From Candidatus Latescibacterota bacterium (lineage in GTDB: Bacteria; Krumholzibacteriota; Krumholzibacteriia; WVZY01), in NCBI GenBank assembly GCA_020352495.1, contig CP070677.1, forward strand, positions 3,059,296 through 3,123,295: a DNA stretch of 64,000 nt. The letters are read 5' to 3'. Positions 16,571 to 48,674 of the stretch are shown in pieces. Both the position numbers and the translations under genes were made by a program. Within the stretch, counting starts at the first letter, position 1, and every line of letters starts with the position of its first letter. Below the pieces are notes generated by a model. It was not told the origin of the DNA. It searched no databases and worked only from the letters and a program-made list of their open reading frames with translations.

Positions 16571-16710
16571 ACAGTCATTATATCCGTCACTACTCAGAGA
16601 GGGAGATCACTCTTGTCACACTGGGCAGAATTGAGTGATATAATGAATCGACGTAAACGTGCCGACACCAGGACGATTCCCCCGGGGTAATTGACATACT
16701 TGGAGCAAGA

Positions 16711-24486: not shown

Positions 24487-24576
24487 GAAAATCGACCCCC
24501 TGTGGCTGTTGAGTGGTTCACCGTCCGTGTTGTAAGATCCGGGAGACATACTCTGCCCTCCAAACATGACAAACGA

Positions 24577-27500: not shown

Positions 27501-30500
27501 AACCCGTGAAGAGAAAGATGTTGACCGCGGCCACCCTTTCCCCTTTTGTCGCAATGAAATGCTCTCCGTCTTCATAATCGGCAACCCAGACTGCACCGGG
27601 GGCCAGAATGGGTTCGGTAACGGTAAAGCTGACTATGTCTTCGACGCAGTTCATGATGGGATGATAAGGGTCATATACGCCAAGCTCTGAAAATGACACG
27701 ACAGGACCGGGGAGAAACGGCGAGTAACCCTCATCCATAAATCGCCCCTGAAGCGCGAAGTCAAACGGAGGATGGGTTGTGAACGCGCCCTCCGTAACGA
27801 CAACCGCACCACCGGCGTCGACATAGTCGGCCAACACGTCACCCATGGCTGCCGGGCTCCCCATCGGCGTGTTGATACACACAATCACACAATCGTATTC
27901 CAGAAGGGTTTCGAGTGACGGAACCAACTGTTGACCATCGAAAATGTCTACAACTGCAATCTGGGGATAGGCCAACAAAGCGATTTGAATGGCATCGAGG
28001 TCGACGTTGCTCTCAATGATCAGAACACTGACCTGTTCACCCAGGTCCAAGGATGCCGCTTGCTCGTTTTGACCGCTCGCTACGTTTATTTTTGAGAACG
28101 GCTGGTGTTTCCCCCGCGGGGCAGCTCCCACCAGATCCTTCAACGACCTCACTTCGGTCCCAACTTGGCGCACAAGATCGTTTCCCCGTGCAACCGGCAC
28201 GCTACTTTGGTGGAGATGATCACCGGGGCGGCGGCTCCCAAACGAAACGATACGGATATCGGTCGCCTGGACACCCGTCGCCCCTTCCGAAATACTGAAA
28301 ATGAGATCACTCCCCCCGACATTCTCAATCGTCAGGATCTGAGTCGACCTCTCACCCGTCATCAGGTCCGCGCTAAAGGCGTCCGGATATGCCAAGATAA
28401 CCGGCGCTGTGCCCCCGATGCCTCTCAACGACACATCGATCACAGGCTCGAACGGATCATCACTTGTTATTGTAAGCGTCCCCAGCTTAAGTCCCTCGCT
28501 AACCGGGCTGAACGTCACCTCCAGTTCCCAGAATTCTCCGGGTGCCACGACAAATCCACCGGTATCCGCACCGAACTCTGCGTTGTCCAAGCCAATCGAA
28601 CTCACGTTGAGAACGTCCGACCCCAGGTTTGAGATCACAAGAGTGTCCCTTGCCGTTTCACCGATCCACGTCGGTTCAAAATCCAGCTCGATGGGCGAAA
28701 CCGCGATATCCGGTGCCGCCGTGACATGAAGCACGACGGGCACGGGGTAGTCCGGTTCGTCCGGATCGTTGCTGGAGACGACGAGAATGTCCTCGTGGTC
28801 GCCACCGGCTAGACCCGTCGCATCGAACAGCACATCAACTGTTGCGCTTTCACCCGTCCACACCGTTCCCGACGGAGGAGCCGCGGTCATCCATGGACGG
28901 TCGGCAATGTCGAAATCCAAAGTCCCTTCTCCGATATTTCGAATCGTGAGACTCTGCGTGGATGTTCCACCCGTTAGCAGACTCTCTTCCAATGAGAGCG
29001 GGTCCACCGATATGTCCGGCGGCCCCAATGTGGTCCCGGACGGCGAATTGGACACATCGGAGACATTGTCCCGTTTGTCGATCACCTTCAGTGCAAAATA
29101 GTACATCGTGTCGAAGTCCAAACCGCCCACAGTGAACGTTTCGTACGAGCCCGGAGGGCTTGGTTGAGGTTCGCCGGGGACCTCCGTGGCCAGATCGAAA
29201 TTTGTTCCAGCGATCGGCGAGAGCGAATAACGAATGTCGTACGAGTCGGCGGTCCATTGGGTGCCATCGTCGCCCGAAGCCGTCCAGGTGAGCGTTATCG
29301 AGTTCGATGTGGGAGCGGTGGTTGCCAAATCGGTCACAGCCGCCGGGGGGATCGTATCGACCAACGCACGAAGCGCTCCAAAAACGTTCAGTCTTCCCCC
29401 GGTCACCGAACGTCCGACCAGATCGGGTATCGAATCGACTGATGAAAGAATGAGTTCCTTCACCTCGAGGTTGCCAAGACCCGGTGAATCCGCCCAGAGA
29501 AGACTCGCAGCGCCTGATACGTGGGGGGCTGCCATGGAGGTCCCGTTGTAATACCCGTATGTATTGCCCGGAAGCGAGCTGTAAATGCCCTGGCCGGGCG
29601 CACCGAGATCGACGGTTGTTGCGCCGTAGTTGGAGTTCATCGCCAATCCGTCATTGTGGTTCGTCCAGGCGACGGTGATGATATTTTCCAAATCGTACGC
29701 CGCTGGATACTGCGGAAAGACATCGGTGTCCCGCCCCGCGTTTCCCGCTGATGCAACAAACAGCATCCCAGCGTTTCCCGATGCCTCGATAGCATCACGC
29801 AGGGCTTCTGATGCACCGCCGCCACCCCAGCTGTTGTTGGTGAGCTTGGCCCCCATCATCGTTGCGTATTCGACGGCCGAAATGGCACCCGACGTGTAAC
29901 CCTGTCCCTCACTGTTGAGAAACTTCAGCGCCATTATTCGAGCGGACCAGCTGACACCGACCACCCCGATCCCGTTGTTCCCAACGGCGGCGATGGTTCC
30001 TGAGACGTGGGAACCGTGACCGTGATCGTCCATGGGGAGTTCGTCGTTGCCCACAAAGTCCCAACCTCTGACATCGTCGACGTAGCCGTTGCCGTCGTCG
30101 TCGGTGTCGTTGCCCGGTATCTCCCCGGGATTGATCCACATGTTGGCCGCCAGATCCTCATGAGTCCAATCGACACCGGTATCGATCACACCAACCAATA
30201 CGGTGTCCCCCGTTTCGATCTGCCAGGCCTCCGGCGCATCGATATCCGCATCCGGTGTACCACCGGTTTGACCGGTGTTATGCAGCCCCCAGAGCCGCTC
30301 GAACTCCGGATCATCCGGAAAGAGGTCATCCGCATAAACGATGTAATCCGGTTCGATGTACTCGATCCGGGGATCGTTGGAGAAACGTTCGACCGCGTCC
30401 TCGGGAGACAATCCCGAGATTTGCCAGAGTTCGGCATCAATCAATGAAAAATGCCTGATAACCGAGGCCCCGAGATTTGCCAGGACAGCGTCTTTATCAG

Positions 30501-30642
30501 TGGGCGCGGATCCCGGTCTCATCTTCACGATGACCTGGTTTGGGGCGTGCCCGATGACTTCCTGTGATCCCAAATCCCGGCCTGTCATCGTCAACACTGC
30601 GAAGACACCCATCGCGAGCAGTGATAGACCTATCCGTTTCAT
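24577..30642 (-). CDS. giant (2021 aa) subtilisin-like S8 serine peptidase, multi-domain, T9SS C-terminal sorting domain
   Basis: AGGAGG RBS, signal peptide and I9-like propeptide. Catalytic triad contexts VIDTGVDWTHEDL / HGHGSHVSGTIA / GTSMAAPHVSGAA. An Fn3 domain, repeated Ig-like and flavodoxin-like modules, and the C-terminal sorting domain NYPNPFNPATTIKY...GVYFYRIKAGEYVNTRKMVFLK. Confidence 0.9.
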   Translation of the reverse strand: MKRIGLSLLAMGVFAVLTMTGRDLGSQEVIGHAPNQVIVKMRPGSAPTDKDAVLANLGASVIRHFSLIDAELWQISGLSPEDAVERFSNDPRIEYIEPDYIVYADDLFPDDPEFERLWGLHNTGQTGGTPDADIDAPEAWQIETGDTVLVGVIDTGVDWTHEDLAANMWINPGEIPGNDTDDDGNGYVDDVRGWDFVGNDELPMDDHGHGSHVSGTIAAVGNNGIGVVGVSWSARIMALKFLNSEGQGYTSGAISAVEYATMMGAKLTNNSWGGGGASEALRDAIEASGNAGMLFVASAGNAGRDTDVFPQYPAAYDLENIITVAWTNHNDGLAMNSNYGATTVDLGAPGQGIYSSLPGNTYGYYNGTSMAAPHVSGAASLLWADSPGLGNLEVKELILSSVDSIPDLVGRSVTGGRLNVFGALRALVDTIPPAAVTDLATTAPTSNSITLTWTASGDDGTQWTADSYDIRYSLSPIAGTNFDLATEVPGEPQPSPPGSYETFTVGGLDFDTMYYFALKVIDKRDNVSDVSNSPSGTTLGPPDISVDPLSLEESLLTGGTSTQSLTIRNIGEGTLDFDIADRPWMTAAPPSGTVWTGESATVDVLFDATGLAGGDHEDILVVSSNDPDEPDYPVPVVLHVTAAPDIAVSPIELDFEPTWIGETARDTLVISNLGSDVLNVSSIGLDNAEFGADTGGFVVAPGEFWELEVTFSPVSEGLKLGTLTITSDDPFEPVIDVSLRGIGGTAPVILAYPDAFSADLMTGERSTQILTIENVGGSDLIFSISEGATGVQATDIRIVSFGSRRPGDHLHQSSVPVARGNDLVRQVGTEVRSLKDLVGAAPRGKHQPFSKINVASGQNEQAASLDLGEQVSVLIIESNVDLDAIQIALLAYPQIAVVDIFDGQQLVPSLETLLEYDCVIVCINTPMGSPAAMGDVLADYVDAGGAVVVTEGAFTTHPPFDFALQGRFMDEGYSPFLPGPVVSFSELGVYDPYHPIMNCVEDIVSFTVTEPILAPGAVWVADYEDGEHFIATKGERVAAVNIFLFTGYWIDDVPEVIRNAVLWSTGVGQWNCWVSACPDFDTVPADESLFIEVTFDAGARCVLGGEYDDTLIVSSNDPNQPEVRITLHLSVTPLPDIAVSRDLIDYGSVFVDSVETDTLMITNEGADPLVVSGITVDNTDFVTDPSGFVLAPFETHELEVTFTPSSEGVIEGTLTVSSNDPDEAEVGVQLRGKGVISSDIAVTPGSLSDELFTGETSTHILTIENTGNGDLFFEVFEGEAGLSILGVQTTSSNDYADRPEIKNSANTSQNNFSSHQKARDIPRLTSLAADQSGDAGVKTSAASRPDSRWPILENISTGEQRRVLLLDSGLNDANIQSLLAAFEEIAIVDRFAGEVATPTLETLRDYHCVIVIVNVPFQDPVAIGDVLADYVDIGGAVILTEGAFMVVFGTDYAIHGRFMDEGYTPLEIGIWYMGTGVLGEFDESHPIMQGAEFAYAALLTATSVAPGAEWVASWHNGVPFVATQGAAVVGMNVFLDTSVPSWMGDIPLILRNAVLWSTGERVCWVSPSPTYGMVPPHGTAEVTIGFDASIGCAGGGTYTDILVVRSNDPDELRLTVPVELQVTARRILPLSANWNLVSWNLDTADDATPEVLSGIMDHLTIALGFDGGGLTFDPTIPPQFNTLNTMDHMHGYWLGMSEGDELVVIGDPVPHETPIPLSSGWNLVSYLPDEADSTAHAIGSILANTIVVLGYEGGGLMFDPSIPPEFNSLQLMKPGFGYWVKTTTDCELTYPSSSIHPGGMVTVAQKTEVTQSSGAANVTPTREWIGIWGDGVRVGGELLPVGTVVEAVDNDDVVCGRFTVTTEGKFGLMTVYKDDPQTETDEGPGVGEEITLYLGDYEIPAGVTWTAMGDVIDLGDVVTSTEDPVQSLPKTYALHNNYPNPFNPATTIKYELPTASDVRLVIYNIKGQVVRELVRKWQPAGRYTATWDGTNASGDAVASGVYFYRIKAGEYVNTRKMVFLK
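25765..28710. repeat. diverged internal tandem duplication, 2 x 1473 bp (491 aa) inside the S8 peptidase gene
   Basis: Unit 1 starts at the DIAVSPIELDF codon (28710). Unit 2 starts at DIAVSRDLIDY (27237) and ends at ...VELQVTARR (25765). Each unit holds Ig-like, Ig-like, linker and flavodoxin-like (DYVDAGGAVVVTEGAF / DYVDIGGAVILTEGAF) domains, then an Ig-like SSNDP domain. Confidence 0.7.
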
Positions 30643-31168: not shown

Positions 31169-33334
31169 TCACCCGTCCGTTCGCTGGTCTTGCTGTTCCA
31201 TTCCATCAACGAGCGCCCGAAATCTCGGATCGTCTTTTATGGGATCGAAATCGCTGTCGTGCTCGACCCAATCCTTATGGGCAAACCCCGCACCAAACGC
31301 TTTCTCGAGATAACGAACAGCCTCATCGGCATCACCCAACCGGGAGTGAAAACAGGCAACGCCGTACAAAAGATACGGATCTTCGGGATCGATGGCCTCC
31401 GCTCTTCGAACCCATCGACGCGCGCGTTCCGGCTCCCCCAAATCGATGAGCGCAGTGGCCCCGAGGTAAATCGCACGGGAGTCATCCGGGTTGAAATCTA
31501 GGTGCTTCTCGATCGCCTCAAGACTCCGCCGATAGACCTCTTTTGCTTCTTCCATACGTTTCATGGTTCTGTACGTAAATGCTTCGAGCGACGGTGCCTG
31601 ATAGTCCTCCGGGTTGACCTCACCGGCCCGGTGATACATCTCTATTGCTTTCTCGAACTTACCCTGGGCGAAACACGTACGAGCGTAGAAATAATAGCCT
31701 TCGAACAACTTGGGATCGAGCAAGATCGCAATATTGAACTCGCGCTCCGCCTCATCGTATCGTTTGCCGACTGAAAGCGCGAGCCCCCGTGCCGCGTGAG
31801 CTTCGGCGAGTTCGGGGTCGAGCTCAAGAGCCGTCGCGCTCGACTCCTGCGCCTTACTCATGTGTTCTTCACCACCACCGAAATATAGGCATAGATAAGA
31901 ATGACAGTCAGCAAGACCGGCGTGGGCGAGCGCATAGTCGGGATCCGTCTTGATCGCCTTCGAAAACATCTCACACGCAAACTCAATCCCACTCCGCTTG
32001 GATTGATAAAAGAACTTACGGCCACGGAGATAATAGTCGTATGCCTGTACGTTTTTGGTCGGGGCGCGTTCGATCGCCCGTTTCTCCCTTTCCGTGAGCT
32101 GGAGCTTGAGTGCTTGGACAATACTCTCTGCAATCTCTTCTTGGATAACAAAAATGTCTTCCAGTTCGCGGTTGTACTGATCCGACCACAGGTGATAGCC
32201 GTCGGACACATTTATCAGCTGTCCTGTGACCCGTACGCGGTTCTCCACCCTCCTTACGCTGCCTTCGAGCACGGTTTCAACGTTCAGTTTTCGTCCAATC
32301 TCACGGATGTCTTGGTTTTTCTCTTTGAACGAAAAAGATGAGGTCCGCGCGGTCACGCGAAGGTCGTCTACCTTGGCTAAAGCATTGATGATCTCGTCCG
32401 CGATCCCGTCGCAGAAGTAGTCTTGATCCTTGTCAGCGCTCATGTTGACGAATGGCAAGACGGCGATCGACCGTTCCGGCTTCTTTGGAGCAGCGACCTC
32501 AGGCGTCCATCCGGAGTCGGTGACTGTGGCGGGGGCACGGAGATGCTCCAACATTCGACCCACGTCTTGGTAACGGTGGACGCGATCCTTTGTCATTGCC
32601 CTTTCGACAATTCGGCGAACCTCAACGGATATGTCCGGCCGAAGTTCCTCCAGCGGAACGGGATCGCCATGTAGGATCGCATAAACAACGGCTGGGCCGA
32701 AATCACCCTTAAACGGGAGTTCGCCTGTGAGCATCTCGTACAACAAAATACCAAGAGACCAAATGTCTGTCCGGTGATCGATCTTGTCGCCCCGCGCCTG
32801 CTCGGGTGAAAGGTACGAGGCGGTTCCCAGCACCGTACCCGTCCTCGTTACCTCTGTCACTCCAGTCAGCTTCGCCACGCCAAAATCCAGAATTTTCACA
32901 ACGTTGTCTTCCGTTACCATGATGTTCGCCGACTTGATGTCACGGTGAACCATTCCGGCCCGATGAGCTCTGGCAAGCCCCTCCGCGACTTGAATGGCGA
33001 ACCCGATTGCCTCATCTACCGGCATTGGCCCCCTGGCTGTTTTGTCCTTTAGCGTCTCACCACGGTAAAAATCCATACACATGAAAAAGCGACCGTCCGG
33101 GGTTTCGTCTATTTCGTGGATCGTGCAGATGTTGTTGTGCTGAAGTGCCGACGCACCTTGGGCTTCGCGGAGAAACCGCTTCTTCGCGTCCTCGTCTTGG
33201 GTAAGACCGGTTGGGAGAAACTTGAGAGCGACGATTCGTTTGAGTTTGAGATCCTTTGCTCTGTACACGACACCCATCCCACCCTCGCCCAACATTTCAA
33301 GTATTTTGTAGTGCGATATCGTCTGTCCAATCAT
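31169..33334 (-). CDS. Ser/Thr protein kinase with TolB-N-like and TPR domains
   Basis: Trimmed to the ATG at 33334 (GGAG upstream), by analogy with the paralog. MIGQTISHYKILEMLGEGGMGVVYRAKD, HRDIKSAN, DFGVAK. Central SIAVLPFVNMSADKDQDYFCDG module. C-terminal TPR repeats. Confidence 0.85.
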   Translation of the reverse strand: MIGQTISHYKILEMLGEGGMGVVYRAKDLKLKRIVALKFLPTGLTQDEDAKKRFLREAQGASALQHNNICTIHEIDETPDGRFFMCMDFYRGETLKDKTARGPMPVDEAIGFAIQVAEGLARAHRAGMVHRDIKSANIMVTEDNVVKILDFGVAKLTGVTEVTRTGTVLGTASYLSPEQARGDKIDHRTDIWSLGILLYEMLTGELPFKGDFGPAVVYAILHGDPVPLEELRPDISVEVRRIVERAMTKDRVHRYQDVGRMLEHLRAPATVTDSGWTPEVAAPKKPERSIAVLPFVNMSADKDQDYFCDGIADEIINALAKVDDLRVTARTSSFSFKEKNQDIREIGRKLNVETVLEGSVRRVENRVRVTGQLINVSDGYHLWSDQYNRELEDIFVIQEEIAESIVQALKLQLTEREKRAIERAPTKNVQAYDYYLRGRKFFYQSKRSGIEFACEMFSKAIKTDPDYALAHAGLADCHSYLCLYFGGGEEHMSKAQESSATALELDPELAEAHAARGLALSVGKRYDEAEREFNIAILLDPKLFEGYYFYARTCFAQGKFEKAIEMYHRAGEVNPEDYQAPSLEAFTYRTMKRMEEAKEVYRRSLEAIEKHLDFNPDDSRAIYLGATALIDLGEPERARRWVRRAEAIDPEDPYLLYGVACFHSRLGDADEAVRYLEKAFGAGFAHKDWVEHDSDFDPIKDDPRFRALVDGMEQQDQRTDG

Positions 33335-33607
33335 CTCTCGCTCCGTGGGATATCGGACGCGTGACGCCAAGACACGTGGGCTTCGGAAGGTCCCGAGGCT
33401 TCATCTATTTTAACAGGAGACGGATCACTATCAAAGAGGGGATTCCGAAATCTCGCGATATGGTTGTCGGCTCTACCGATAGTCGGCAATCATTGCAGAT
33501 CGTATTTGCTTTCTCGAGAGTTTCAGAGATGCTAGAATTCGACTGTCGAGGCCTGTCGACACCAAATCCGATTTCTGGGTTTAGCCAAAGGACGATGGGA
33601 GAGATCA

Positions 33608-37371: not shown

Positions 37372-37437
37372 GACAGGTCGCATAACGAATGAGGCTTCTG
37401 TACGCTGAAGTCTCATTTGTTCATCTTCGAGTGAAAA

Positions 37438-37478
37438 GAACCGGCGGGGCCCTTAAAGGCTCCGCCGGTTCTTATTTG
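37438..37478. terminator. bidirectional rho-independent terminator
   Basis: 14-bp stem GAACCGGCGGGGCC / GGCTCCGCCGGTTC (one G.U pair) with a 6-nt loop. TTATTTG follows on the + strand and TTTTCAC on the - strand. It lies between the convergent sorting-domain relic and paralog 1. Confidence 0.7.
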
Positions 37479-37580: not shown

Positions 37581-38186
37581 TTACTCTGCCTCGTATATCT
37601 CCTTTATCCGACCCCACGTGCTCGGTTCGACGGCCACGCCTGTTAGGTTGACCGAAATCGAATTGTTGTCCTCATCCGCTTCCTCAACCATATTTCCGAG
37701 ATCCAACTCGAACGAGGCAAAATCCTCTCCCGAATAATGAATCGTCTGGGGAGGGGTCAAGTACGATTCCTCACAAACGCAATACCAGGACGGGGGTAAT
37801 GTATCCAAACCGTTCGGGGCACGCGGGACCCACTTGCACTCCCCGTACTCGATTGGAGGTCCTGCTGAATAGACACAGTCACCCTTGCACTCTTCTTCAG
37901 TCTGGAAGTTGTAGCAGTCGTTGGTCGACATTGTGACGTCGATCGGCTCGCCATACACGGGGACCCCGTCGAGAAAGAGCCCAATGTCGCTCACGATAAT
38001 CGTATCCATGAGCATACCATTGAGAATCGAATAGTGGGCGGTGAGCCGGATAGAATCCGGTGCTGGAAAACCAAAGGTGATCGAGTCGGCTCTGATATCG
38101 ACCCAGAAAGCGGGGTCGTCCTGCGCGACTGGCAGATACACGAGAGCAGTCAAAACGGCCAAAACCACTAACAAGACGTACCTCAT
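37581..38186 (-). CDS. small secreted Cys-rich CARDB-like protein, paralog 1
   Basis: 201 aa. Signal peptide MRYVLLVVLAVLTALVYLPVAQ, six Cys, CARDB-like end motif DLGNMVEEADEDNNSISV, C-terminal PSTWGRIKEIYEAE. RBS GGGGGTGA. Confidence 0.8.
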   Translation of the reverse strand: MRYVLLVVLAVLTALVYLPVAQDDPAFWVDIRADSITFGFPAPDSIRLTAHYSILNGMLMDTIIVSDIGLFLDGVPVYGEPIDVTMSTNDCYNFQTEEECKGDCVYSAGPPIEYGECKWVPRAPNGLDTLPPSWYCVCEESYLTPPQTIHYSGEDFASFELDLGNMVEEADEDNNSISVNLTGVAVEPSTWGRIKEIYEAE

Positions 38187-38272
38187 ACGTCACCCCCCCG
38201 TTTAGTGATTCATTGTGGATGGGCCGGTTCGTCCCGGCTGCAAATACGGAGCGCATGTCCCCATGCGCCCCG

Positions 38273-38878
38273 TCACTCCTCGTCGAACAGAGCCTTAATC
38301 CGACCCCACGTGCTCGGTTTGACGGCCACGCCGGTTACGTTGACCGAAACCGAATTGTTCGATTCATCCGGCTCCTCTACCATATTACCGGGATCCAACT
38401 CGAACGAGGCAAAATCCTCACCCGAATAATGAACCGTACACGATTTCTGGGCCTTTTTCTCGCAAGCGCACCACTCAGTACCGGGTATTGTGTCTCCCGG
38501 AGGTCCGAAAGCTTCGTTCCACACGCACTCCCCGATTTCGATCGGAGGTACCGATGAATAGTAACACTCGCCCTTGCATTCAGCCTCGGTCTTGAAAACA
38601 TGGCAGTTGTTGTACGACCTTGTGACGTCGATCGGCTCGCCATACACGGGAGCATCGTCGAGAAAGAACCCAATGTCGCTCACGATGATCGTATCCATGG
38701 GCATGTGGCTAAAGAACGTGTAGTGCGCTGTAAGCCGAATCGAATCCGGTGCTGGAAAGCCAAAGGTGATCGAGTCGGCTCTGATGTCGACCCAGGGAAC
38801 AGTGTCGTCTTCCTGTGCCGCCGGCAGATAAACCAGGGCCGTCAAAACGGCCAAAACCACTAACATTACGTATTTCAT
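38273..38878 (-). CDS. small secreted Cys-rich CARDB-like protein, paralog 2
   Basis: 201 aa. Same signal peptide and N- and C-terminal blocks as paralog 1, with a divergent central 30-60 aa. Seven Cys. Confidence 0.8.
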   Translation of the reverse strand: MKYVMLVVLAVLTALVYLPAAQEDDTVPWVDIRADSITFGFPAPDSIRLTAHYTFFSHMPMDTIIVSDIGFFLDDAPVYGEPIDVTRSYNNCHVFKTEAECKGECYYSSVPPIEIGECVWNEAFGPPGDTIPGTEWCACEKKAQKSCTVHYSGEDFASFELDPGNMVEEPDESNNSVSVNVTGVAVKPSTWGRIKALFDEE

Positions 38879-38965
38879 ACGTCACCCCCCTTTTGCGACT
38901 CTTTGCGGATGGGCCGGTTCGTCCCGGCCAGAAATACAAAAGTACGTGCCCCGATAGGCCCCTCA

Positions 38966-39562
38966 CTACTCTTCGAAAAGAGCCTTTATCCGACCCCATG
39001 TGCTCGGTTCGGTGGCGACCGATCCCACTGACACGGTGATCGAGTTGTTCCATTCTCTAAGTTCTTCTACCACACCGCCTGGATCCAACTCGAAGGTTGC
39101 CATATCCTCTCCCGAGTAGAGAACGGTCCGAGTTTTTGAAAAAGATTTTGTACAGACACACGGTTCCGCTATGAATATCGTGTCCATCGGATCGGACTCG
39201 AACCACTCGCACTCACCGAATTCGATCGGAGGCACCGAGCTGAAGTAACACTCCCCCTTGCAGTCCTCGGGCGTCGTGAACACATAGCAGTTGTTTAGTG
39301 ACTTTGTGACGTCGATCGGTTCCCCACCTACCGGAACCCCATCGAGCCAGAAACCCACATCGCTCACGATGATCGTATCCATTAACATACCGTTAAAAAC
39401 CGTATAATGGCCGGTGAGCCGAATAGAATCCGGCGCTGGAAAACCAAAGGTAAGAGAATCGGCTCTGATGTCGACCCAGGAAGGTGGGTCGTCTCCTTGT
39501 GCGGACGGAAGATACACGAGAGCCGTCAGAACCGCTAGCATAACTAGTAACACATATTTCAC
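38966..39562 (-). CDS. small secreted Cys-rich CARDB-like protein, paralog 3
   Basis: 198 aa. GTG start with GAGGGGG upstream. Same architecture as paralogs 1 and 2. Confidence 0.75.
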   Translation of the reverse strand: MKYVLLVMLAVLTALVYLPSAQGDDPPSWVDIRADSLTFGFPAPDSIRLTGHYTVFNGMLMDTIIVSDVGFWLDGVPVGGEPIDVTKSLNNCYVFTTPEDCKGECYFSSVPPIEFGECEWFESDPMDTIFIAEPCVCTKSFSKTRTVLYSGEDMATFELDPGGVVEELREWNNSITVSVGSVATEPSTWGRIKALFEE

Positions 39563-39710
39563 GCTGTACCCCCTCTTGTGCTGCTCCTTGCCGGCGACCG
39601 GGATAGGCCCTGAAGGATGACCACTAACCAGTGCCGAGCGTCAACGTCAGGAATGTGGAAACAGAAGACCAACGATCCGCCGCTGCAAAACGAACCGTCT
39701 TTACGTACTA

Positions 39711-39739
39711 ATTTTATCACCTACATCCCCCTGTTACAA
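39711..39739 (-). promoter_or_regulatory. candidate sigma70 promoter for the paralog array (TTGTAA-N17-TGaTAAAAT)
   Basis: Reverse complement of 39734-39739 is TTGTAA, followed by a 17 nt spacer; reverse complement of 39711-39716 is TAAAAT, with an extended -10 TG. It lies in the 358-bp gap after the RND gene. Confidence 0.45.
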
Positions 39740-39920: not shown

Positions 39921-42900
39921 CTACCCACTCCTGGCGGGAGACCCGACAGATCGTTTTAAGTGTCTTTCGGCCATCCAGCAGTAGAGAACGGGCACGGTTA
40001 GCACCCGAACGACGACAAAGACCATCCCACCAAAGGATGGAATCGCCATCGGGACCATGATGTCGGAACCTCGACCGGTGGATGTCAGGACGGGGATCAA
40101 GGCAAGGAGTGTGGTGGCTGCAGTCATCAGAGCCGGCCGGACACGGCGCTTTCCCGCCTCGATGGTAGCGGTTCGAACCGCTTTTACTGTCGATGGTTTT
40201 CTGTGCGTGAAGCTTTGTTTCAAATAGGTGGATATGATGACACCGTCATCGGTGGCGATTCCAAAAAGAGCGAGAAAGCCGACCCACACGGCTACGGAGA
40301 GATTGTAGTTTCGGATTTGAAACAGTTCGCGCATGTCGACGCCAAGAATTGAAAAATTCAAAAACCAATCCTGGGAGTACAGCCAGATCATAAGAAATCC
40401 GCCCGACCAGGCGATGAAGATTCCCGAGAAAACGAGAAACGTCGTCGGGACGTGTTTGAACTGAAAGTAGAGGATCAAGAATATGATGATCAGGGCCAAG
40501 GGCAAGACGATCGTCAATCTATTCTCAGAACGGATTTGACTCTCGTAACTTCCCGCAAATGCGTAGCTGACTCCCGCCGGGAGGTCGAGCTCACCGTTGT
40601 TGATCTTGCCTCGCAGATATTTCTGGGCGTCTTCGACAACGTCCACCTCAGCGTACCCCGGTCTCTTATCAAAGATGACATAACCGACCAGAAAGGTATC
40701 CTCGGATTTGATCACCATCGGTCCGCGGACGAATCGAATCTCCGAGAGTTCCAAAAGTGGAATCTGCGTGCCGTCCGGAGCGGGTACGAGTATGTTGCCG
40801 AGATCCTCGATGGAGTTACGCAGTTCACGTTGATAACGGACTCTAACCGGATACCGTTCACGCCCCTCGACTGTCGTCGTGAGCCGTTTGCCCCCGATGG
40901 CGACTTCGATCACGTCTTGCACCCCTTGGATGCTTATTCCATACCTTGCGATGGCCTCCCTGTCGATGCCGATCTCGAGATATGGTTTTCCGACGATCCG
41001 ATCCGCCACTACTGCGGCCGGCTCTATTGACGGCACTTCTTTGAGGAACCGCTCGATTTGCAGACCGATGTGTTCGATCGTCTCCAGATCGGGGCCCTTT
41101 ATCTTGACGCCCAGCGGCGCACGCATTCCCGACTGGAGCATGACGATACGCGCCGCGATCGGCTGGAGTTTTGGTGCGGAGGTTGTTCCTATCAATTTGC
41201 CCGCTTTGATGATTTCGTCCCAAATATCCGTTGGCGTCTTTATGTGATCTCTCCAATTTCGATACGGCCGCCCATGATCGTCGGGTATCAGCTCGCCATG
41301 ATCATCCCGTGCGAACTCCCCATCTTTTTTGTTGTATTTGAATTTGATGCGGCGCCCGTTCTCGCCGACGATGTATTCCGGCTTGTAGTTGATGACGGTT
41401 TCAATCATCGATATCGGGGCGGGGTCCAGGGGTGACTCCGCCCGGCCGAGTTTTCCAACAACGGTCTCGATCTCCGGAATCGACGTGAATGCCTTGTCCT
41501 GCGTCTGGAGAACATCCAGAGCTTCACCGATCGATGCGTGAGGCATCGTCGTCGGCATATACAAAAAGGAACCCTCATCCAGATCGGGCATGAACTCTTT
41601 TCCCAACCCCGGGAAGGCGTGGTTCAACGAAACGTAAGCTGGCGTCGAGCGGACAAAGTTCGGCACAAAACCAAAGAGTCGATCGAACCCCAACCACACC
41701 GCTGTACCGACAAGCACGAGCACGAGCGGCAATACGAGAAACAAGAACTTGTGGTCGAGACACCAACGAAGAATCGGTTCGTATCCCTTGATAAAAAGCT
41801 GAACCAGCACGAGGATGCTTCCCAGAAGGATGACAACAAAAAAGAAGTTCAAAATGACTCCCGACCGCACACCCAAAGGCATCCAATGGGAGGCGAGGAC
41901 CCACGCAACAATAATGACGACAATATAATTGAGCATCGCGGGAGCTCTCGCCGCGATAGGCGTCGGAATGCGACTTTTGAATTGTAGGTACGCCGCCACG
42001 AGAATCAGACCAAATCCCGTAAGCCACAACGACCAGTACATCGCCGCGGCGGCCGCGATGAGCAACCCAACCCGCCACATCCGTCGGGAACGTATCGCGG
42101 CCTGCCCTTTTGTGAAGAGCAGATGCGCGAACGGCGGAACGAGTGTGAGCGCGACGATGATAGACGCGACGAGCGCGAACGTTTTCGTATAGGCCAGGGG
42201 CTTGAACAGCTTTCCCTCGGCCGCTTCCAATGTGAACACTGGGAGGAATGACACAACCGTGGTTGCCACGGCGGTCAACACGGCACCCCCGACCTCCGAT
42301 GCCGCTGCAAAGATAACGTTTCTCCGGGGTATCTCCGGCGGGGCGCGATCGAGATGTTTCACTATGTTTTCGGAGATCACGATACCCATATCGACGATCG
42401 TGCCGATCGCAATTGCGATCCCCGAGAGGGCAACGATGTTGGCATCCACCCTGAACGCTTTCATCGCGATAAACACGATCAGGACGGTCAGCGGCAAAAG
42501 TCCCGATATCAGAAGAGAACTGCGAAGGTTCATCATCATGATCACAACGACTATGATCGTGACCAGAATCTCATCGATAAGCGCCGTGTTGAGCGTTCCA
42601 AGAGTTTCGTGAATCAATCCGGTGCGATCGTAGAATGGTATGATCGTTACCTGAGAGACTCGGCCGTCCGGGAGTGTTTTTCTGGGAAGACCGGCCGAGA
42701 TCTCCTGAATTCTTTTCTTTACGTTCTTGATCGCCTCGAGTGGGTTCTCGCCATAACGTACGACAACCACCCCGCCGACGACCTCGGCACCCCCCTTATC
42801 CAAAGCCCCTCGACGAAGGGAGGGGCCAAGCGACACCGTGCCCACATCTGCGATTCGAATTGGCACATTTTCGCTTTGCCTGATAACGGTGTTCTCGATA

Positions 42901-43721
42901 TCCGAGATACTCTCGATGAAACCCAACCCGCGAATGACATACTCCGCTTTATTGATCTCGATCGTACGCGCACCGACATCGATATTGGACGTTTTGACCG
43001 CCCGAAACACGTCGGTAAGCGCCACGTTGTGCGCCCGCATCGCCTCGGGGTTCACGTCGATCTGATACTCCTGGACAAAACCACCTGCCGAAGCGACTTC
43101 GGCCACACCACGCGCCGAGAGAAGTGCGTACCTAACCGTCCAGTCTTGGATCGAACGAAGCTCATGGAGATCCCACCCTCCCGTGGGATTTCCGTCTTTG
43201 TCGCGGCCCTCCAGCGTATACCAGAAGATCTGACCGAGCGCGGTCGCGTCGGGGCCAAGGGCGGGCTGAACACCCGAGGGAATCGTGCCGGGCGGCAATG
43301 AATTGAGTTTTTCCAATACGCGGCTTCGAGACCAATAGAAGTCGATGCCGTCGTCAAAAATGACATAGACGCTGGAAAATCCGAAGTAGGAGTAACTTCG
43401 AATGGTCTTGACCCCGGAGATACCGAGCAGGGCGGTCGTCAAAGGATAGGTGACTTGATCCTCGACGTCCTGAGGAGATCTGCCCCTCCATTCGGTGAAG
43501 ACGATTTGCTGATTCTCACCGATATCCGGGATCGCATCGACCGGCACGGGATCACGAGGCAATCCACCAAGATCCCAATCGAATGGCGCAACCATGATGC
43601 CCCATCCAATGATCACCAGGGTCACCATCGTAACAACGAATTTGTTGTCGATGCAGTACCGGATGACGCGGTCGATCGGAGAGAGTCGACGACCGTCGGT
43701 GTCGTACAACTGGTTCGTCAT
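39921..43721 (-). CDS. CusA/CzcA-family heavy-metal efflux RND pump, enlarged (1266 aa)
   Basis: Typical heavy-metal-efflux (HME) RND sequence throughout. An extra hydrophobic block of about 110 aa lies between TM6 and TM7 (RMWRVGLLIAAAAAMYW...LVQLFIKGYEPILRW). An insert of about 45 aa lies in the second periplasmic loop. Confidence 0.9.
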   Translation of the reverse strand: MTNQLYDTDGRRLSPIDRVIRYCIDNKFVVTMVTLVIIGWGIMVAPFDWDLGGLPRDPVPVDAIPDIGENQQIVFTEWRGRSPQDVEDQVTYPLTTALLGISGVKTIRSYSYFGFSSVYVIFDDGIDFYWSRSRVLEKLNSLPPGTIPSGVQPALGPDATALGQIFWYTLEGRDKDGNPTGGWDLHELRSIQDWTVRYALLSARGVAEVASAGGFVQEYQIDVNPEAMRAHNVALTDVFRAVKTSNIDVGARTIEINKAEYVIRGLGFIESISDIENTVIRQSENVPIRIADVGTVSLGPSLRRGALDKGGAEVVGGVVVVRYGENPLEAIKNVKKRIQEISAGLPRKTLPDGRVSQVTIIPFYDRTGLIHETLGTLNTALIDEILVTIIVVVIMMMNLRSSLLISGLLPLTVLIVFIAMKAFRVDANIVALSGIAIAIGTIVDMGIVISENIVKHLDRAPPEIPRRNVIFAAASEVGGAVLTAVATTVVSFLPVFTLEAAEGKLFKPLAYTKTFALVASIIVALTLVPPFAHLLFTKGQAAIRSRRMWRVGLLIAAAAAMYWSLWLTGFGLILVAAYLQFKSRIPTPIAARAPAMLNYIVVIIVAWVLASHWMPLGVRSGVILNFFFVVILLGSILVLVQLFIKGYEPILRWCLDHKFLFLVLPLVLVLVGTAVWLGFDRLFGFVPNFVRSTPAYVSLNHAFPGLGKEFMPDLDEGSFLYMPTTMPHASIGEALDVLQTQDKAFTSIPEIETVVGKLGRAESPLDPAPISMIETVINYKPEYIVGENGRRIKFKYNKKDGEFARDDHGELIPDDHGRPYRNWRDHIKTPTDIWDEIIKAGKLIGTTSAPKLQPIAARIVMLQSGMRAPLGVKIKGPDLETIEHIGLQIERFLKEVPSIEPAAVVADRIVGKPYLEIGIDREAIARYGISIQGVQDVIEVAIGGKRLTTTVEGRERYPVRVRYQRELRNSIEDLGNILVPAPDGTQIPLLELSEIRFVRGPMVIKSEDTFLVGYVIFDKRPGYAEVDVVEDAQKYLRGKINNGELDLPAGVSYAFAGSYESQIRSENRLTIVLPLALIIIFLILYFQFKHVPTTFLVFSGIFIAWSGGFLMIWLYSQDWFLNFSILGVDMRELFQIRNYNLSVAVWVGFLALFGIATDDGVIISTYLKQSFTHRKPSTVKAVRTATIEAGKRRVRPALMTAATTLLALIPVLTSTGRGSDIMVPMAIPSFGGMVFVVVRVLTVPVLYCWMAERHLKRSVGSPARSG

Positions 43722-43724
43722 TCG

Positions 43725-45782
43725 TTATCTCGTCCCTTCAACCGCAGGTTTCAGAGTCTTCTTGATGGCCCCACACCGGAGCATGGTTTTGCCATAGAAC
43801 GAGTTCCACACCACATCCACTGTCTGAAGCCAGTACGCGCCGTTGTCATACGGCGCCATCGGACAATACGTGAGGTAGTAGTTCAGCTGTCCTGCGTGAC
43901 CGACCGATTCGTGTAGCTTAATGGTGGCTTTCGAAAGATAAAAAAAAGCATCGCGAGCGGTCTCGATACCCTCCGCGTTCGAGGTTTTTTTCGCCCACTT
44001 TGTCAGCTGCTCGGAACTCTTCGTCCATTGCTCTTTCCCGGCGCGTGAAAATGTAGACGCGTTGACGTCTTTTGTGGCAGTGAGGAGTCTCCTCGCGGCC
44101 GATTTGGCTTTCTCCAGGTCATCTTTTGCCAACGCCATCTGAACAGCGAAATAGGAATCATATACGGGTGTCAGCGTCTTCCGGGCCTCGTCACTCTCGT
44201 TCAATCGTCCGCGACCCAACTCACCACCGTTCGGTGAGACCGATGTCGTTTCGTCCCGATCATGCCGATGACCAATACCCGCTGCGTTTGCCTCGGAAGA
44301 CATCATGCTGGGTTTGGCTTGGATCTGGAGCTCGCTGTCGATCTTGAAGGCGCCGCTGGAAACGACGAGCTCTCCTTCCTCGATACCCGACTTGACCACA
44401 TAAAAATCTCCGGCCCGGGGTCCCAGCTCGATTTCGCGTCCCTCGAAGAGCGGTCCGTCGTCGTTGGGAATTTCTACATACACTACGGCGCGTTTACCGG
44501 TGATGAGCGGCGCGCTCGCCGGGATCAAAATCGGCGCTTTGTTGATGTCGATCGCTTTTCCGACATAACCAAGCGACGTCGCGGGCACCAGATCCATACC
44601 GCAGACATCACACTTACCGGGTCCATCCTTGACGACCTCGGGATGCATCGGTGATATCCACTTGTTGGCCAGGTAATCGTCAACGATATTTCCGTGGCCG
44701 TCGATCCGCGACTTGACGACACCACGGACGAACATATCCGGTTTGAGTTTTTTGCTCTTGTTGTCGACGATCGCCCTTACCTTGACGGTCCGGGTTTTTG
44801 GGTCTACGAGTGGATCGATGAAACTCACTATCGCCTCAAAGGTCTCGCCGGGAAATGACTGGGAGGTAAACTCCACACGTTGACCGTAGCGTAGCCACGG
44901 CAGATCCGATTCATAGGCCTCGAGCATCACCCAAAGCGTGGTGAGATCGGCTATACCATAGATACGGGTGCCCGTTGTGACATACATGCCCTCCCTTGCC
45001 TCTTTCTGGACGACGACACCGCCAACGGGGGCGTATATCGTCAGGTGATCCGATGCTTCGTGCGTGGCTTGTATTCGCTCGATTTGCCGGGGAGTAAGAC
45101 CAAAAAGCCGGAGTTTTTCTCGCGTGGCTTCCAGCGTGGCCTTCGCCGTGTATCGCAAGACCGGGCTCGCCGTGTTATCCAAAGCCGATACCGCGGTGTG
45201 CGCCTGGATCAATTCCTCCTGGGCGGCCAACAGTTCCGGGGAATACATCTGCACCAAGTGATCCCCTTTCTTGACGGTTATACCGGTGTAGTCGGCGAAC
45301 AGCCGGTCCAGTCTGCCAGGAACCCAGGCCGTGATGTATGCGAGCTTGGTCTCGTCGTAGGCAATTCTTCCCACCATACGCACCTCTGCCTCGGCGTACG
45401 CTCGCGTGGCCGGTGTCGTCTGAAGCCGCGCCAGTTGTCTGGCCGCCTGCGACATCCTGAGTTGACGGGGCGCGAGTCCGTCCCCGGCTCGCGATTCCAG
45501 TGGTATGAGATCCATAAAACAGATCGGGCACTTGCCCGACTTGGGCAGCTTGATCTGCGGGTGCATCGAACAGGTCCACATCGTTGACTCGGGAGGCCGG
45601 TCCACCGCGTGGTCTGCGTGTGGGTCTTCCGTTTTGACCGCTCTTTGATCACTGCTCCCAAACATCACGGCGCCAAGCACAAAGGCAAACACGGCAACAG
45701 CTCCCAGGGCAACGAGACCTCTTGACCCCCGAAGCGCGAACCTATCGATTGGTGTCCGAAATATTCTGCGTGACGTCATCAC
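43725..45782 (-). CDS. RND periplasmic adaptor (CusB-like) with two Cys4 heavy-metal-binding modules and a DUF3347-like tail
   Basis: WTCSMHPQIKLPKSGKCPICFMDL and WISPMHPEVVKDGPGKCDVCGMDL. Membrane-fusion-protein (MFP) barrel/lipoyl core. C-terminal YCPMAPYDNGAYWLQ. Stop is 3 nt before the RND start. Confidence 0.8.
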   Translation of the reverse strand: MMTSRRIFRTPIDRFALRGSRGLVALGAVAVFAFVLGAVMFGSSDQRAVKTEDPHADHAVDRPPESTMWTCSMHPQIKLPKSGKCPICFMDLIPLESRAGDGLAPRQLRMSQAARQLARLQTTPATRAYAEAEVRMVGRIAYDETKLAYITAWVPGRLDRLFADYTGITVKKGDHLVQMYSPELLAAQEELIQAHTAVSALDNTASPVLRYTAKATLEATREKLRLFGLTPRQIERIQATHEASDHLTIYAPVGGVVVQKEAREGMYVTTGTRIYGIADLTTLWVMLEAYESDLPWLRYGQRVEFTSQSFPGETFEAIVSFIDPLVDPKTRTVKVRAIVDNKSKKLKPDMFVRGVVKSRIDGHGNIVDDYLANKWISPMHPEVVKDGPGKCDVCGMDLVPATSLGYVGKAIDINKAPILIPASAPLITGKRAVVYVEIPNDDGPLFEGREIELGPRAGDFYVVKSGIEEGELVVSSGAFKIDSELQIQAKPSMMSSEANAAGIGHRHDRDETTSVSPNGGELGRGRLNESDEARKTLTPVYDSYFAVQMALAKDDLEKAKSAARRLLTATKDVNASTFSRAGKEQWTKSSEQLTKWAKKTSNAEGIETARDAFFYLSKATIKLHESVGHAGQLNYYLTYCPMAPYDNGAYWLQTVDVVWNSFYGKTMLRCGAIKKTLKPAVEGTR

Positions 45783-45848
45783 TCGTCTCCTTGAGTGCCC
45801 AGTCTTCTGTTTCTTCGACTGCTTTTCTGACCACGTTCTTGGCGTGCC

Positions 45849-47237
45849 CTATCGTTCAAATCCTTCAATCGGAGTCCCCGTAAGTCCTCGACCAATGACC
45901 ATCTCGATCTCCGCCCTGCTTACGGCCAAATCGGACTTGGCGCGTTCGTACTCGAGCTGGAAGTCGAGCAGCTGGCGTTGGGCGTCCAGCACGCTCAAGA
46001 AATCCGCCTCTCCGGCCTGATAGGACGTGTAGCTCGTGTTGAGCGATTGCTCGGCCTTAGGTATCAGTCCGTCGCGGTACAACCGAGTTTTTCTCAACGC
46101 GTCTTCGTACTCGAAAACGATCTTCTCCGTTAGCGCCTTCAGATGGTTTTGCGCATTTGCATAATCGTTCCGGGCTTTTCGGTATTGGGCTTCGGCTTCC
46201 TTTTTTCGCGACTGGTTCGCCCCAAACCAGATCGGCAGACTCACGCCAACGCTTGCCATCCACGCATCTTCACCGCTGTCCAACACGCCGGGACCACGTG
46301 CTTCGCCCGTTTCGATATAGTCCACTCCAATCGTGAAATTGGGATACGACATCTTGGAAGCGAGTCGCTTTGCCGCTGTAGTTTTATCAATGATGGACAA
46401 AAGCGACTTCAGATCGGGATTGTTTGCCAGCGCGGCTGTCACGATGCTGTCACGATCTACCGCGGTCTCCACCACTTCGATATTGGTCGGCACCGGGAGC
46501 TGAACGCTGTCCGGCAGATTCGTAACCGCCCTGAGCTTTGCCATGACCGGCTCCATCATGTCCTCCGCAGTGTGTAGCCGATCTTCGAGCTTCACAAGCT
46601 CGACCTGTGCTTTGATCACGTCCGGGTGTTGTTTCAGCGCGACTCGATACTTGGCCCGCGCGACCGACTCCCAGAACTTGAGCAGTTCGAGATTCTCCTT
46701 TGTGATGGCAATGTCTCTTCCCAGAAAGTAGAAGTCGTAATACGCGGACTTCACCTGATAGAAAAGCTTTAGTTTCTCCGAGCGGAACGCCTGATATGCG
46801 GCGTTTGCCGCTTCGAGTGTTACATCTTTTCGCGCACTCAGCGTTCCAAACCACGGGAACGTCTGCATCAGCTTGAACCGTTGGTTCTGCGGTCCCACTC
46901 GTGTTTCAACGTTCTCGATAAAATACGTGTAGGTAAACACGGGGTCGGGTAGAGTACCCGCGTAACCTGATCTCTCGACGACGGACTTCCATTGATAGAA
47001 GGCCGCCTTCAAGGCGGGGCTTTGTTTGGCGGCATAGACGAGATAATCTTTCAGACGGGCATCCGGAGCGAAACGTCCCGGGGCATGGCCGGCCGACTCG
47101 TAAACGGTCGCCAGAGAATCAGTGAGGTGGCGGGTCTGCCTTTGATCCAACGCCTTCGCCGATCCGGAGATCATGGCAACCGCCAGAAATGCCAGACTGG
47201 CTGATTTGATGAATCCGCGGGGCTTGTTTGGTCTCAT
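45849..47237 (-). CDS. TolC-family outer-membrane efflux protein
   Basis: Trimmed to the ATG at 47237 (MRPNKPRGFIKSASLAFLAVAMISGSAKA signal peptide). Two OEP repeats. Confidence 0.8.
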   Translation of the reverse strand: MRPNKPRGFIKSASLAFLAVAMISGSAKALDQRQTRHLTDSLATVYESAGHAPGRFAPDARLKDYLVYAAKQSPALKAAFYQWKSVVERSGYAGTLPDPVFTYTYFIENVETRVGPQNQRFKLMQTFPWFGTLSARKDVTLEAANAAYQAFRSEKLKLFYQVKSAYYDFYFLGRDIAITKENLELLKFWESVARAKYRVALKQHPDVIKAQVELVKLEDRLHTAEDMMEPVMAKLRAVTNLPDSVQLPVPTNIEVVETAVDRDSIVTAALANNPDLKSLLSIIDKTTAAKRLASKMSYPNFTIGVDYIETGEARGPGVLDSGEDAWMASVGVSLPIWFGANQSRKKEAEAQYRKARNDYANAQNHLKALTEKIVFEYEDALRKTRLYRDGLIPKAEQSLNTSYTSYQAGEADFLSVLDAQRQLLDFQLEYERAKSDLAVSRAEIEMVIGRGLTGTPIEGFER

Positions 47238-47303
47238 GACGATTCTATTTCCTTTTATGGCTCTCCCGAACGCCCGGTACCGGGATCTCTCGCAAGAGTC
47301 AAA

Positions 47304-47319
47304 TACAAATAACATGCCA
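47304..47319 (-). promoter_or_regulatory. weak sigma54-type -24/-12 candidate TGGCATgttatTTGTA upstream of the efflux operon
   Basis: The GG to TTG spacing is correct and the -24 element is good, but -12 reads GT instead of GC. About 55 nt upstream of the TolC ATG. A sigma70 alternative, TTGATT-N18-TAATAA, lies just upstream. Confidence 0.3.
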
Positions 47320-47382
47320 CAGTTCATAACTTATTAATTGTCAATGTATTACCGAATCAACACCTGGTCTCCATCGCGGGAA

Positions 47383-47440
47383 ACAGAGAATATTGTCTAT
47401 TCTGTGTTGACTATTCTTCGGTTATGGCGAATATTCTCTG
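47383..47440. promoter_or_regulatory. nested inverted repeats built on AGAGAATATT / TATTCT in the divergent cus / two-component intergenic region
   Basis: ACAGAGAATA-N5-TATTCTGTGT (47383-47407). An 11-bp perfect inverted repeat, CAGAGAATATT (47385-95) paired with AATATTCTCTG (47430-40). Four TATTCT/GAATA copies in total. Confidence 0.4.
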
Positions 47441-47612
47441 CGATTCACTCGAGACCCCGTGTGGTGCCGATGGCGTCATCCATCAGGCGGCGTCTCGACG
47501 GCCATTACTGATTGATTTATTTGAAGTCACGTATTCTGATTTCCGCAGGGTCATGCGTGGCATACGTGTTGCGTTGCCCCGCAAGACACACCCAGTCTGG
47601 AGGCAGAACCGC

Positions 47613-48665: not shown

Positions 48666-48674
48666 GAATTTGCC

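Follow-up and report, generated by a model that had tools for sequence, protein, structure and literature searches.

In a 64,000-nucleotide stretch of Candidatus Latescibacterota bacterium DNA (contig CP070677.1; the whole stretch is referred to as the window), three head-to-tail genes on the minus strand, A, B and C, encode small six-cysteine proteins that share an ending, PSTWGRIK followed by acidic residues. This ending is, on its sequence, a local variant of a tag of ~17 residues, ...P-[VT]-[EQ]-x-x-[ST]-W-G-x-[IV]-K-[AS]-L-Y-R-COOH, which recurs at the very C-terminus of many otherwise unrelated proteins with signal-peptide-like N-termini. We tentatively suggest that the tag is a previously undescribed linear sorting signal, read at the free C-terminus without a transmembrane helix or folded domain and used alongside type IX secretion by Latescibacterota, Krumholzibacteriota and related uncultured phyla, and that arrays of six-Cys CARDB-like proteins are one client family, presenting variable binding loops; we consider this possible rather than probable.

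An earlier note on this DNA had described three head-to-tail genes of 201, 201 and 198 amino acids with a period of 684-692 bp, having conserved ends and a variable core. That observation is confirmed, and the interpretation placed on it is partly supported. The list of open reading frames (ORFs) bears out the gene structure, with start-to-start distances of 684 and 692 bp; the end assigned to the array, position 39648, lies 86 bp beyond the start of gene A (Table 1). The end motifs quoted for the three proteins are all present in the alignment, as is the PSTWGRIK tail: M[RK]YV..LAVLTALVYLP, WVDIRADS.TFGFPAPDSIRLT, YSGED..FELD and NNS are common to the three, which are 66-70% identical to the first-listed copy. 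The N-termini have K or R at position 2, a ~15-residue uncharged hydrophobic stretch, then P-x-A-Q and acidic residues; they satisfy a crude signal-peptide rule, and residues 3-16 were modelled as a helix by AlphaFold2.

No segment of the family is more conserved than the tail (entropy 1.60 bits). Its residues W191 and K195 are conserved in at least 90% of 43 diverse members, those outside the array being 20-57% identical to copy B, and most members outside the window's clade end in [ST]W[GS]x[IV]K[AS][LM][YF]R; ...SLYRE and ...ATYAP are other, minor endings. The first sign that the tail is modular came from locus L001 of a Candidatus Latescibacteria MAG, where a 204-amino-acid cysteine-rich exported protein (16072-16686, plus strand), unrelated to the six-Cys family, ends in ...PVEQTSWGKVKEMYR-stop (...TSWGKVKEMYR-stop). 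A search of metagenomes for the tail, as the earlier note had proposed, was made with a DNA pattern for [ST]-W-[GS]-x-[IVM]-K-[AS]-[LF]-Y-R-stop and found it at no fewer than 120 loci. Among the matches listed, 132 ORFs end in the motif (117 of them at least 80 amino acids long, median 214) and none of the 132 is a true six-Cys family member; membership suggested at E ~1e-4 was rejected because the similarity is confined to the tail. Positions that the pattern left free are conserved too, again among the matches listed, with P at -15 in 72/124, V/T at -14 and E/Q at -13. The resulting consensus, ..TPVExx[ST]WGx[IV]K[AS]LYR, is well fitted by the window's VAVEPSTWGRIK.

The strict pattern forced Y-R-stop, so that the dominance of a terminal R is only partly independent of the search, but the unforced tails of the six-Cys family and a scan with a relaxed motif support it. 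When the relaxed motif, with no stop required, was run in six frames over 757 kb of retrieved DNA, 169 occurrences fell in long ORFs, every one of them three residues or fewer from the stop and none internal. A signal-peptide-like N-terminus was present in 78/88 full-length tail-bearing ORFs as against 68/449 control ORFs from the same loci, by a crude rule and not SignalP. The passenger regions are mutually unrelated: an NHL beta-propeller, a CHRD domain and a phosphoesterase are among them, and several have no match. Two to four tail-bearing genes occur at 29/118 loci among the matches listed, mostly as tandem paralogues 24-86% identical, and the triplication in the window is one instance of this general habit. 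The proteins come from Candidatus Krumholzibacteria, Candidatus Latescibacteria and unclassified 'bacterium' metagenome-assembled genomes (MAGs), in which all are named 'hypothetical protein'.

A sister pattern run against a viral collection gave 11 matches, of which 8 were rejected as repeated phage sequence in ORFs of 25-33 amino acids; the other 3 are longer ORFs ending in the tail. Two of these begin with a signal-peptide-like sequence, and the third is incomplete and similar to one of the two. The eight phage contigs (L008-L012, L014, L015 and L017) share a near-identical ...SSWRNIKSFYS-stop, a conserved phage element whose match to the tail pattern is accidental. A 42-amino-acid tail profile run against an index of 5.8 billion proteins gave 38 candidates and 4 matches. 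No Pfam or NCBIfam model matched at the tails of seven tail-bearing proteins and the three window proteins, and full-text searching of the literature found no paper on the motif or on such sorting signals in these phyla.

A sequence that is strictly C-terminal, modular and carried by many unrelated exported proteins has the general properties of a sorting signal, and proteins homologous to the tail's passengers carry recognised sorting modules. In two family members, P0017 and P0030, the tail is replaced by an IPT(L)-like motif and a hydrophobic transmembrane helix, to which P0017 adds a basic cluster; P0017 scores 10.7 bits against IPTL_CTERM, short of the 20.5-bit threshold. The tail-bearing protein of L033 is homologous to the passenger of a protein in L066 that ends in a type IX secretion system (T9SS) C-terminal domain (30% over 188 amino acids, E 7e-9), and a tail-bearing NHL passenger finds its best NCBIfam match in a family of PEP-CTERM proteins. 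Proteins with FlgD_ig-type T9SS C-terminal domains abound at the tail-bearing loci, as they do in the window. The only family that recurred as a neighbour of tail genes, in a comparison of 45 loci, proved to be an artefact of T9SS C-terminal domains common to its members. The earlier note had guessed at a sorting or processing tag. The modular, terminal character that such a tag calls for is borne out; its sorting role we infer from the sorting modules on homologous passengers, the strict terminal position and the signal-peptide-like N-termini, which together make a sorting or retention signal the best reading.

A free C-terminus strictly required at a fixed distance, on a tail without membrane-spanning or amphipathic character, would also suit a C-terminal docking or regulatory peptide common to many periplasmic proteins of these phyla, such as a PDZ or TPR carboxylate-clamp ligand, a handle gripped by a tail-specific protease or a strand that mediates oligomerisation. 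Such a requirement is typical of peptide-binding domains that recognise the terminal carboxylate; a terminal arginine, however, is unusual in PDZ ligands. The homologous passengers described above also argue against docking, in that a T9SS C-terminal domain, an IPTL-like motif with a transmembrane helix or a best match to PEP-CTERM proteins is found with them at the same position. We regard a docking peptide as unlikely, although present data do not separate it cleanly from a sorting signal, since a sorting receptor could itself be such a domain.

The six-Cys family to which A, B and C belong is rare. No match to any of the three was found in Pfam or NCBIfam, even at E <= 10, and with source names reading 'hypothetical protein' the earlier view that this is not a described family stands. 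A word-indexed search of 5.8 billion proteins returned just four close homologues beyond the three copies, one of them a single-copy gene in a Candidatus Latescibacteria MAG, and a scan of genome contigs returned the same MAG only. A profile search of 1.84 billion cluster representatives gave 86 matches. Some 50 of them are small and built on the same plan, whole or as fragments, mostly 180-215 amino acids long; the remainder are large multi-repeat proteins, aligned only at profile positions ~145-185, whose repeats are CARDB domains. Both the family profiles and the structure model were built with copy B as their first sequence.

By profile and by model, the scaffold is related to CARDB, recognisably so only through intermediates, which agrees with the Ig-like, CARDB-like fold suggested earlier. 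Six cysteines together with D162, E169, E172 and N175 are invariant across the 43 members, and the latter four belong to the CARDB signature D..N.V.E..E.NN. Pfam CARDB (PF07705) is matched by 23/43 members at E <= 0.01, and P0015 (34.1 bits) and P0055 (40.2 bits) pass its 22.7-bit cut-off; A, B and C fall short of the Pfam gathering score. When the family profile A3 was compared with the sequences of the Protein Data Bank (PDB), it matched the solved CARDB domains 2l0d_A (E 3.4e-5), 2kl6_A (9.2e-4) and 3idu_A (2e-3). The alignment to 2l0d_A is colinear, with profile positions 47-86 corresponding to chain residues 22-60 and positions 148-181 to residues 76-109. The ~60 profile positions that lie between these segments and contain the six cysteines thus represent an insertion replacing ~15 CARDB residues, and owing to this interruption the proteins lack a contiguous CARDB domain of ~100 amino acids.

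Structure prediction with AlphaFold2 gave a similar picture. An alignment of 7 sequences was too poor (predicted local distance difference test, pLDDT, 44), and one of 22 sequences was used, yielding a model with pLDDT 78.8 and a predicted template-modelling score (pTM) of 0.69. Among PDB structures Foldseek ranked 3idu_B first, the CARDB domain of PF1109, on which the predicted beta-sandwich superposes with probability 1.0 and a TM-score of 0.68 when normalised by the target; normalised by the query, the TM-score is 0.40, since the query also includes the insertion, signal peptide and tail. Strands 115-122 and 135-150 pair in the model as a hairpin with the variable core at its tip, where the loop has pLDDT ~63.

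The cysteine framework described in the earlier note is kept, in that the six cysteines are invariant in all 43 members, with the qualification that copy B has a seventh, C147, in the core. An even number of invariant cysteines in Sec-exported proteins usually means disulfides, and Sec-type export with an even count makes three disulfides the most likely state of the six. The disulfide-framed variable insert that the note described is accordingly best divided: the insert is framed by cysteines and its loop, from Cys4 to the C-x-C motif, ranges from 6 to 28 residues across the family, and the disulfides are what we infer. One subfamily has two additional cysteines within this loop.

The contrast between conserved ends and variable core among the three copies is pronounced. 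The most divergent 30-column window of the alignment, columns 119-148, shows 71% mean pairwise amino-acid difference versus 26% outside, a divergence reached by 0/20,000 column permutations, and uniform divergence is refuted. Sliding windows of 20 codons agree, with a proportion of nonsynonymous differences (pN) of 0.48-0.49 in the core and 0.02-0.30 elsewhere. The synonymous divergence (dS) is 0.59 for B-C and 1.35-1.58 for the pairs with A, and the ratio of nonsynonymous to synonymous divergence (dN/dS) over whole genes is 0.17-0.37. The three copies are old duplicates under purifying selection and not a recent amplification; nor is a local amplification as a special event supported, given their age and the frequency of tandem paralogues among tail-bearing genes. 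Nor do the data show the diversifying selection that the note had suggested, as relaxed constraint fits a core ratio of nonsynonymous to synonymous proportions (pN/pS) of ~0.6 equally well.

The core could instead have no adaptive meaning, being an unconstrained surface loop open to substitutions and indels, with flanks that gene conversion or constraint has kept alike. Besides the low core pN/pS, synonymous differences (pS) also peak in the core, at 0.75-0.85, the value expected of unaligned codons, as compared with 0.38-0.71 in the flanks; this fits misalignment by indels, homogenised flanks or both, and the core would look the same whether the loop is indel-prone and unconstrained or gene conversion has homogenised its flanks. 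The range of C4-C5 loop lengths over the family and the lower confidence with which the loop is modelled point the same way. Set against this, though not decisively, are the invariant cysteines that flank the loop in every member, the two cysteines gained within it by one subfamily, and the retention of arrays of 3-4 diverged copies in two lineages. A loop of no adaptive meaning is thus quite conceivable, if somewhat short of an even prospect. The cores were also considered as targets of a diversity-generating retroelement, which was rejected, as blastn of the three cores against the 64-kb window gave self-matches and short chance matches and no template-like copy; a reverse-transcriptase gene was not searched for exhaustively.

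The data presented above have led us to propose a model whereby A, B and C, old tandem paralogues of a rare family of small proteins, would be exported via the Sec pathway. The mature protein of ~180 amino acids would be a CARDB-type beta-sandwich with a six-Cys module of ~60 amino acids inserted between strands; part of the module would form a beta-hairpin, its tip between Cys4 and the C-x-C motif free to vary in sequence and length. After Sec export the tail would be read as a sorting or retention signal that places the protein in the cell envelope or on the surface, where the sandwich may present the disulfide-stapled hairpin as a binding surface and the paralogue array may supply several specificities. 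Taken whole, from Sec-exported CARDB-type paralogues with a six-Cys insert and variable hairpin to the C-terminal sorting or retention tag, we judge this model evenly poised between right and wrong.

Several observations weigh against it. In the window copies and their nearest relatives the ending is Y/F-x-E(E) and not Y-R; their tag may be a drifted form or may act in another way. The analysis turned up no candidate for a sorting enzyme or receptor. The tail contains no hydrophobic helix and is no more amphipathic than shuffled sequences, so it fits no known anchor mechanism, and it was modelled with low confidence (pLDDT 40-60). The Foldseek E-value for 3idu_B is only 8e-3. Positive selection on the loop is not demonstrated, because the core pN/pS is below 1 and the core codons, with pS at the unaligned level, are saturated and essentially unalignable. 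An anchor in the form of an amphipathic helix was considered separately and rejected, the hydrophobic moment of the tail not exceeding that of shuffles.

Gene neighbourhoods differ among lineages. Four tandem copies, 36-41% identical to the first copy, occur in a second lineage (MAG GCA_014382975.1 and related contigs); other genomes have a single copy. In L001 and L142 the orthologue is flanked by two small membrane proteins that have no homologue in the window. In one subfamily (L003, L004, L007, L140 and L141) the six-Cys genes always lie divergently beside an Fe/Mn superoxide dismutase gene, and in L007 genes for an Rrf2 regulator and a NorB-like nitric-oxide reductase come next. The linkage may reflect shared ancestry of close genomes or a connection to stress, oxidative or nitrosative. 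No neighbour is conserved across the lineages compared (the window, L001, L142, L003, L004, L007, L139, L140 and L141), and as neighbours differ by lineage, gene context gives no consistent functional lead.

In the window, a complete Cus/Czc-like tripartite efflux operon, which includes heavy-metal-binding domains, ends 358 bp upstream of the array on the same strand. It is accompanied by divergently transcribed genes for a histidine kinase and a sigma-54-dependent response regulator (region 39921-50039). A, B and C might on this account be CusF-like periplasmic metal-handling accessories of the adjacent pump, with their C-x3-C and C-x-C motifs binding Cu, Ag or another soft metal. Such spacings can bind metals, and the closest solved CARDB domain was crystallised with di-metal ions, according to the title of 3idu. 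However, the linkage to a heavy-metal resistance-nodulation-division (RND) operon is seen in the window only and is absent around L001, L142, L003, L004, L007, L139, L140 and L141, while another subfamily adjoins the superoxide dismutase. Across the 43 members no His or Met is conserved along with the cysteines, whose even number in Sec-exported proteins usually points to disulfides; no metallochaperone family in Pfam or NCBIfam is matched by A, B or C, and a promoter-like site and a long gap precede gene A. The metal-binding role raised in the earlier note thus comes down to a neighbouring Cus-like pump in one genome, and we consider it improbable; the efflux operon is probably context and not part of the array's system.

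Small, exported, cysteine-rich, variable proteins encoded in tandem also bring to mind secreted antagonistic peptides or toxins of a bacteriocin-like kind, diversified in tandem. A protein of ~180 amino acids with an Ig-like fold is not bacteriocin-like, though, the same tail occurs on enzymes and propeller proteins, and there are no adjacent immunity, ABC-exporter or maturation genes; we consider this reading very improbable.

The features of the array and of the genes around it are collected in Table 1. The two spacers, each of ~86 bp, are homologous, so the duplicated unit is a gene plus its spacer. The hairpin common to both spacers lacks a U-run, and a further strong hairpin lies immediately past the B stop codon in the B-C spacer (fold z-score -2.65); the spacer hairpins may serve in mRNA processing or stability and so adjust how strongly each copy is expressed relative to the others. 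The hairpin downstream of gene C probably ends the transcription unit. Upstream of gene A, the sigma-70-like match is weak, one having been found where 1.8 were expected by chance. No sigma-54 promoter above chance was found around the array and efflux operon, and no Rfam family in or around the array.

Table 1. Positions of the array, its parts and its neighbours; window numbering except where a locus is named.
Feature	Position	Strand	Description	Basis
Gene A	38966-39562	minus	198 aa, GTG start; first in the direction of transcription; AAGAGGGGG ribosome-binding site upstream	ORF list, alignment with B and C
Gene B	38273-38878	minus	201 aa; seventh cysteine, C147, not conserved	ORF list, alignment
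Gene C	37581-38186	minus	201 aa; last of the array	ORF list, alignment
Signal-peptide-like N-terminus	A 39497-39562; B 38813-38878; C 38121-38186	minus	residues 1-22 of A	read from sequence
Variable core of A	39122-39208	minus	residues 119-147; takes in the conserved C-x-C	
Variable core of B	38432-38524	minus	residues 119-149; C147 inside	
Variable core of C	37740-37835	minus	residues 118-149	
C-terminal tail of A	38969-39007	minus	PSTWGRIKALFEE	
C-terminal tail of B	38276-38317	minus	PSTWGRIKALFDEE	
C-terminal tail of C	37584-37625	minus	PSTWGRIKEIYEAE	
A-B spacer	38879-38965	minus	GCCGGGACGAACCGGC hairpin and GGGGGGTGA ribosome-binding site; homologous to B-C spacer	
B-C spacer	38187-38272	minus	GCCGGGACGAACCGGC hairpin and strong GGGGGGTGA ribosome-binding site, as in A-B spacer	
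Terminator-like hairpin	37436-37473	minus	strong; downstream of gene C; 16-pair stem, then U-run	folding z-score -4.84
Sigma-70-like promoter match (uncertain)	39711-39739	minus	TTGTAA-17-TAAAAT, TG upstream; within the 358 bp that separate gene A from the RND pump gene	
Cus/Czc-like tripartite efflux operon	39921-47327	minus	upstream of the array	Pfam OEP, HlyD_D23 plus HMBD, ACR_tran
Outer-membrane factor	45849-47327	minus	efflux operon	
Membrane-fusion protein	43725-45782	minus	efflux operon; two heavy-metal-binding domains and DUF3347	
RND pump	39921-43721	minus	efflux operon; 1266 aa	
Six-Cys genes of the superoxide dismutase-linked subfamily	L003 10001-13175; L004 6561-9732; L007 8001-8588; L140 1252-1842		four tandem copies or one	

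Elsewhere in the window, an 887-amino-acid protein (54723-57386, plus strand) has an MtrC/MtrF-like multihaem cytochrome domain (E 1.6e-7) and a T9SS-type FlgD_ig domain at its C-terminus, and may be an outer-surface cytochrome sorted by the T9SS. A 2021-amino-acid subtilase (24577-30642, minus strand) has HYDIN/ASH Ig-like domains and a C-terminal FlgD_ig domain; it is followed by a 398-amino-acid protein (23371-24567, minus strand) with a weak Por_Secre_tail match, 26.5 bits against a 27-bit cut-off. In this genome, large proteins appear to bear T9SS C-terminal domains and small ones the short WGRIK tail. Two Ser/Thr protein kinases with long TPR regions lie less than 20 kb apart (31169-33370 and 51379-54306, both on the minus strand).

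By itself the scaffold would be only modestly interesting, and the tail is the more important part. Sorting signals at the C-terminus, among them LPXTG, PEP-CTERM and the T9SS C-terminal domains, have each led to the discovery of dedicated envelope machinery. If our proposal is true, the tail, on well over a hundred unrelated exported proteins, would mark the clients of an unknown recognition system in phyla with few or no cultured members, and would provide a simple sequence rule by which many 'hypothetical proteins' in soil and sediment metagenomes could be annotated.

Comparison with known systems places these proteins as follows. Like CusF metallochaperones, A, B and C are small, exported and encoded beside a Cus-like RND system; no relation in sequence or fold was detected, the neighbourhood is not kept in homologues, and the conserved residues of CusF are Met, His and Trp where those of the six-Cys family are Cys. 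With the PEP-CTERM/exosortase and IPTL-CTERM systems the tail has in common its place at the extreme C-terminus, a short signature after a Pro/Thr/Glu-rich stretch, and its occurrence on many unrelated exported proteins and tandem paralogues; we take its consensus TPVEPSTW to resemble the VPEPST of PEP-CTERM. It differs in that the motif is followed by neither a transmembrane helix nor a basic cluster, the window tails having 8-12 mostly polar residues after PST. No NCBIfam sorting-signal model matched the window proteins or the tail-bearing proteins tested, and we know of no cognate sortase for the tail.

The C-terminal domains of the T9SS (Por_Secre_tail, PF18962, and FlgD_ig, PF13860) resemble the tail in standing at the C-terminus of diverse Sec-exported proteins, many per genome, in the same genomes, the window's included, and with at least one passenger domain in common. 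They are folded beta-sandwiches of 70-100 amino acids, whereas the tail is linear, ~17 amino acids long, without a domain-sized fold, and borne by mostly smaller proteins (median 214 amino acids among the matches listed). Neither domain was matched in A, B or C; domains of this kind occur in other window proteins described above. With CARDB (PF07705; 3IDU and 2KL6, both Pyrococcus furiosus PF1109, and 2L0D, a 'cell surface protein') the family shares the beta-sandwich frame, N-terminal strands of the form ..V.lylDG..v.., the C-terminal D-x-x-N-x-V-x-E-x-x-E-x-N-N and occurrence in exported or surface proteins. In contrast to CARDB, it has a six-Cys module of ~60 amino acids in place of ~15 residues, consists of single-domain proteins of ~200 amino acids rather than repeat arrays within large proteins, carries a dedicated C-terminal tail, and in its window copies escapes the Pfam model. 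The protein family itself is thus a variation on a known surface-protein domain, and it is the tail that could be new in kind.

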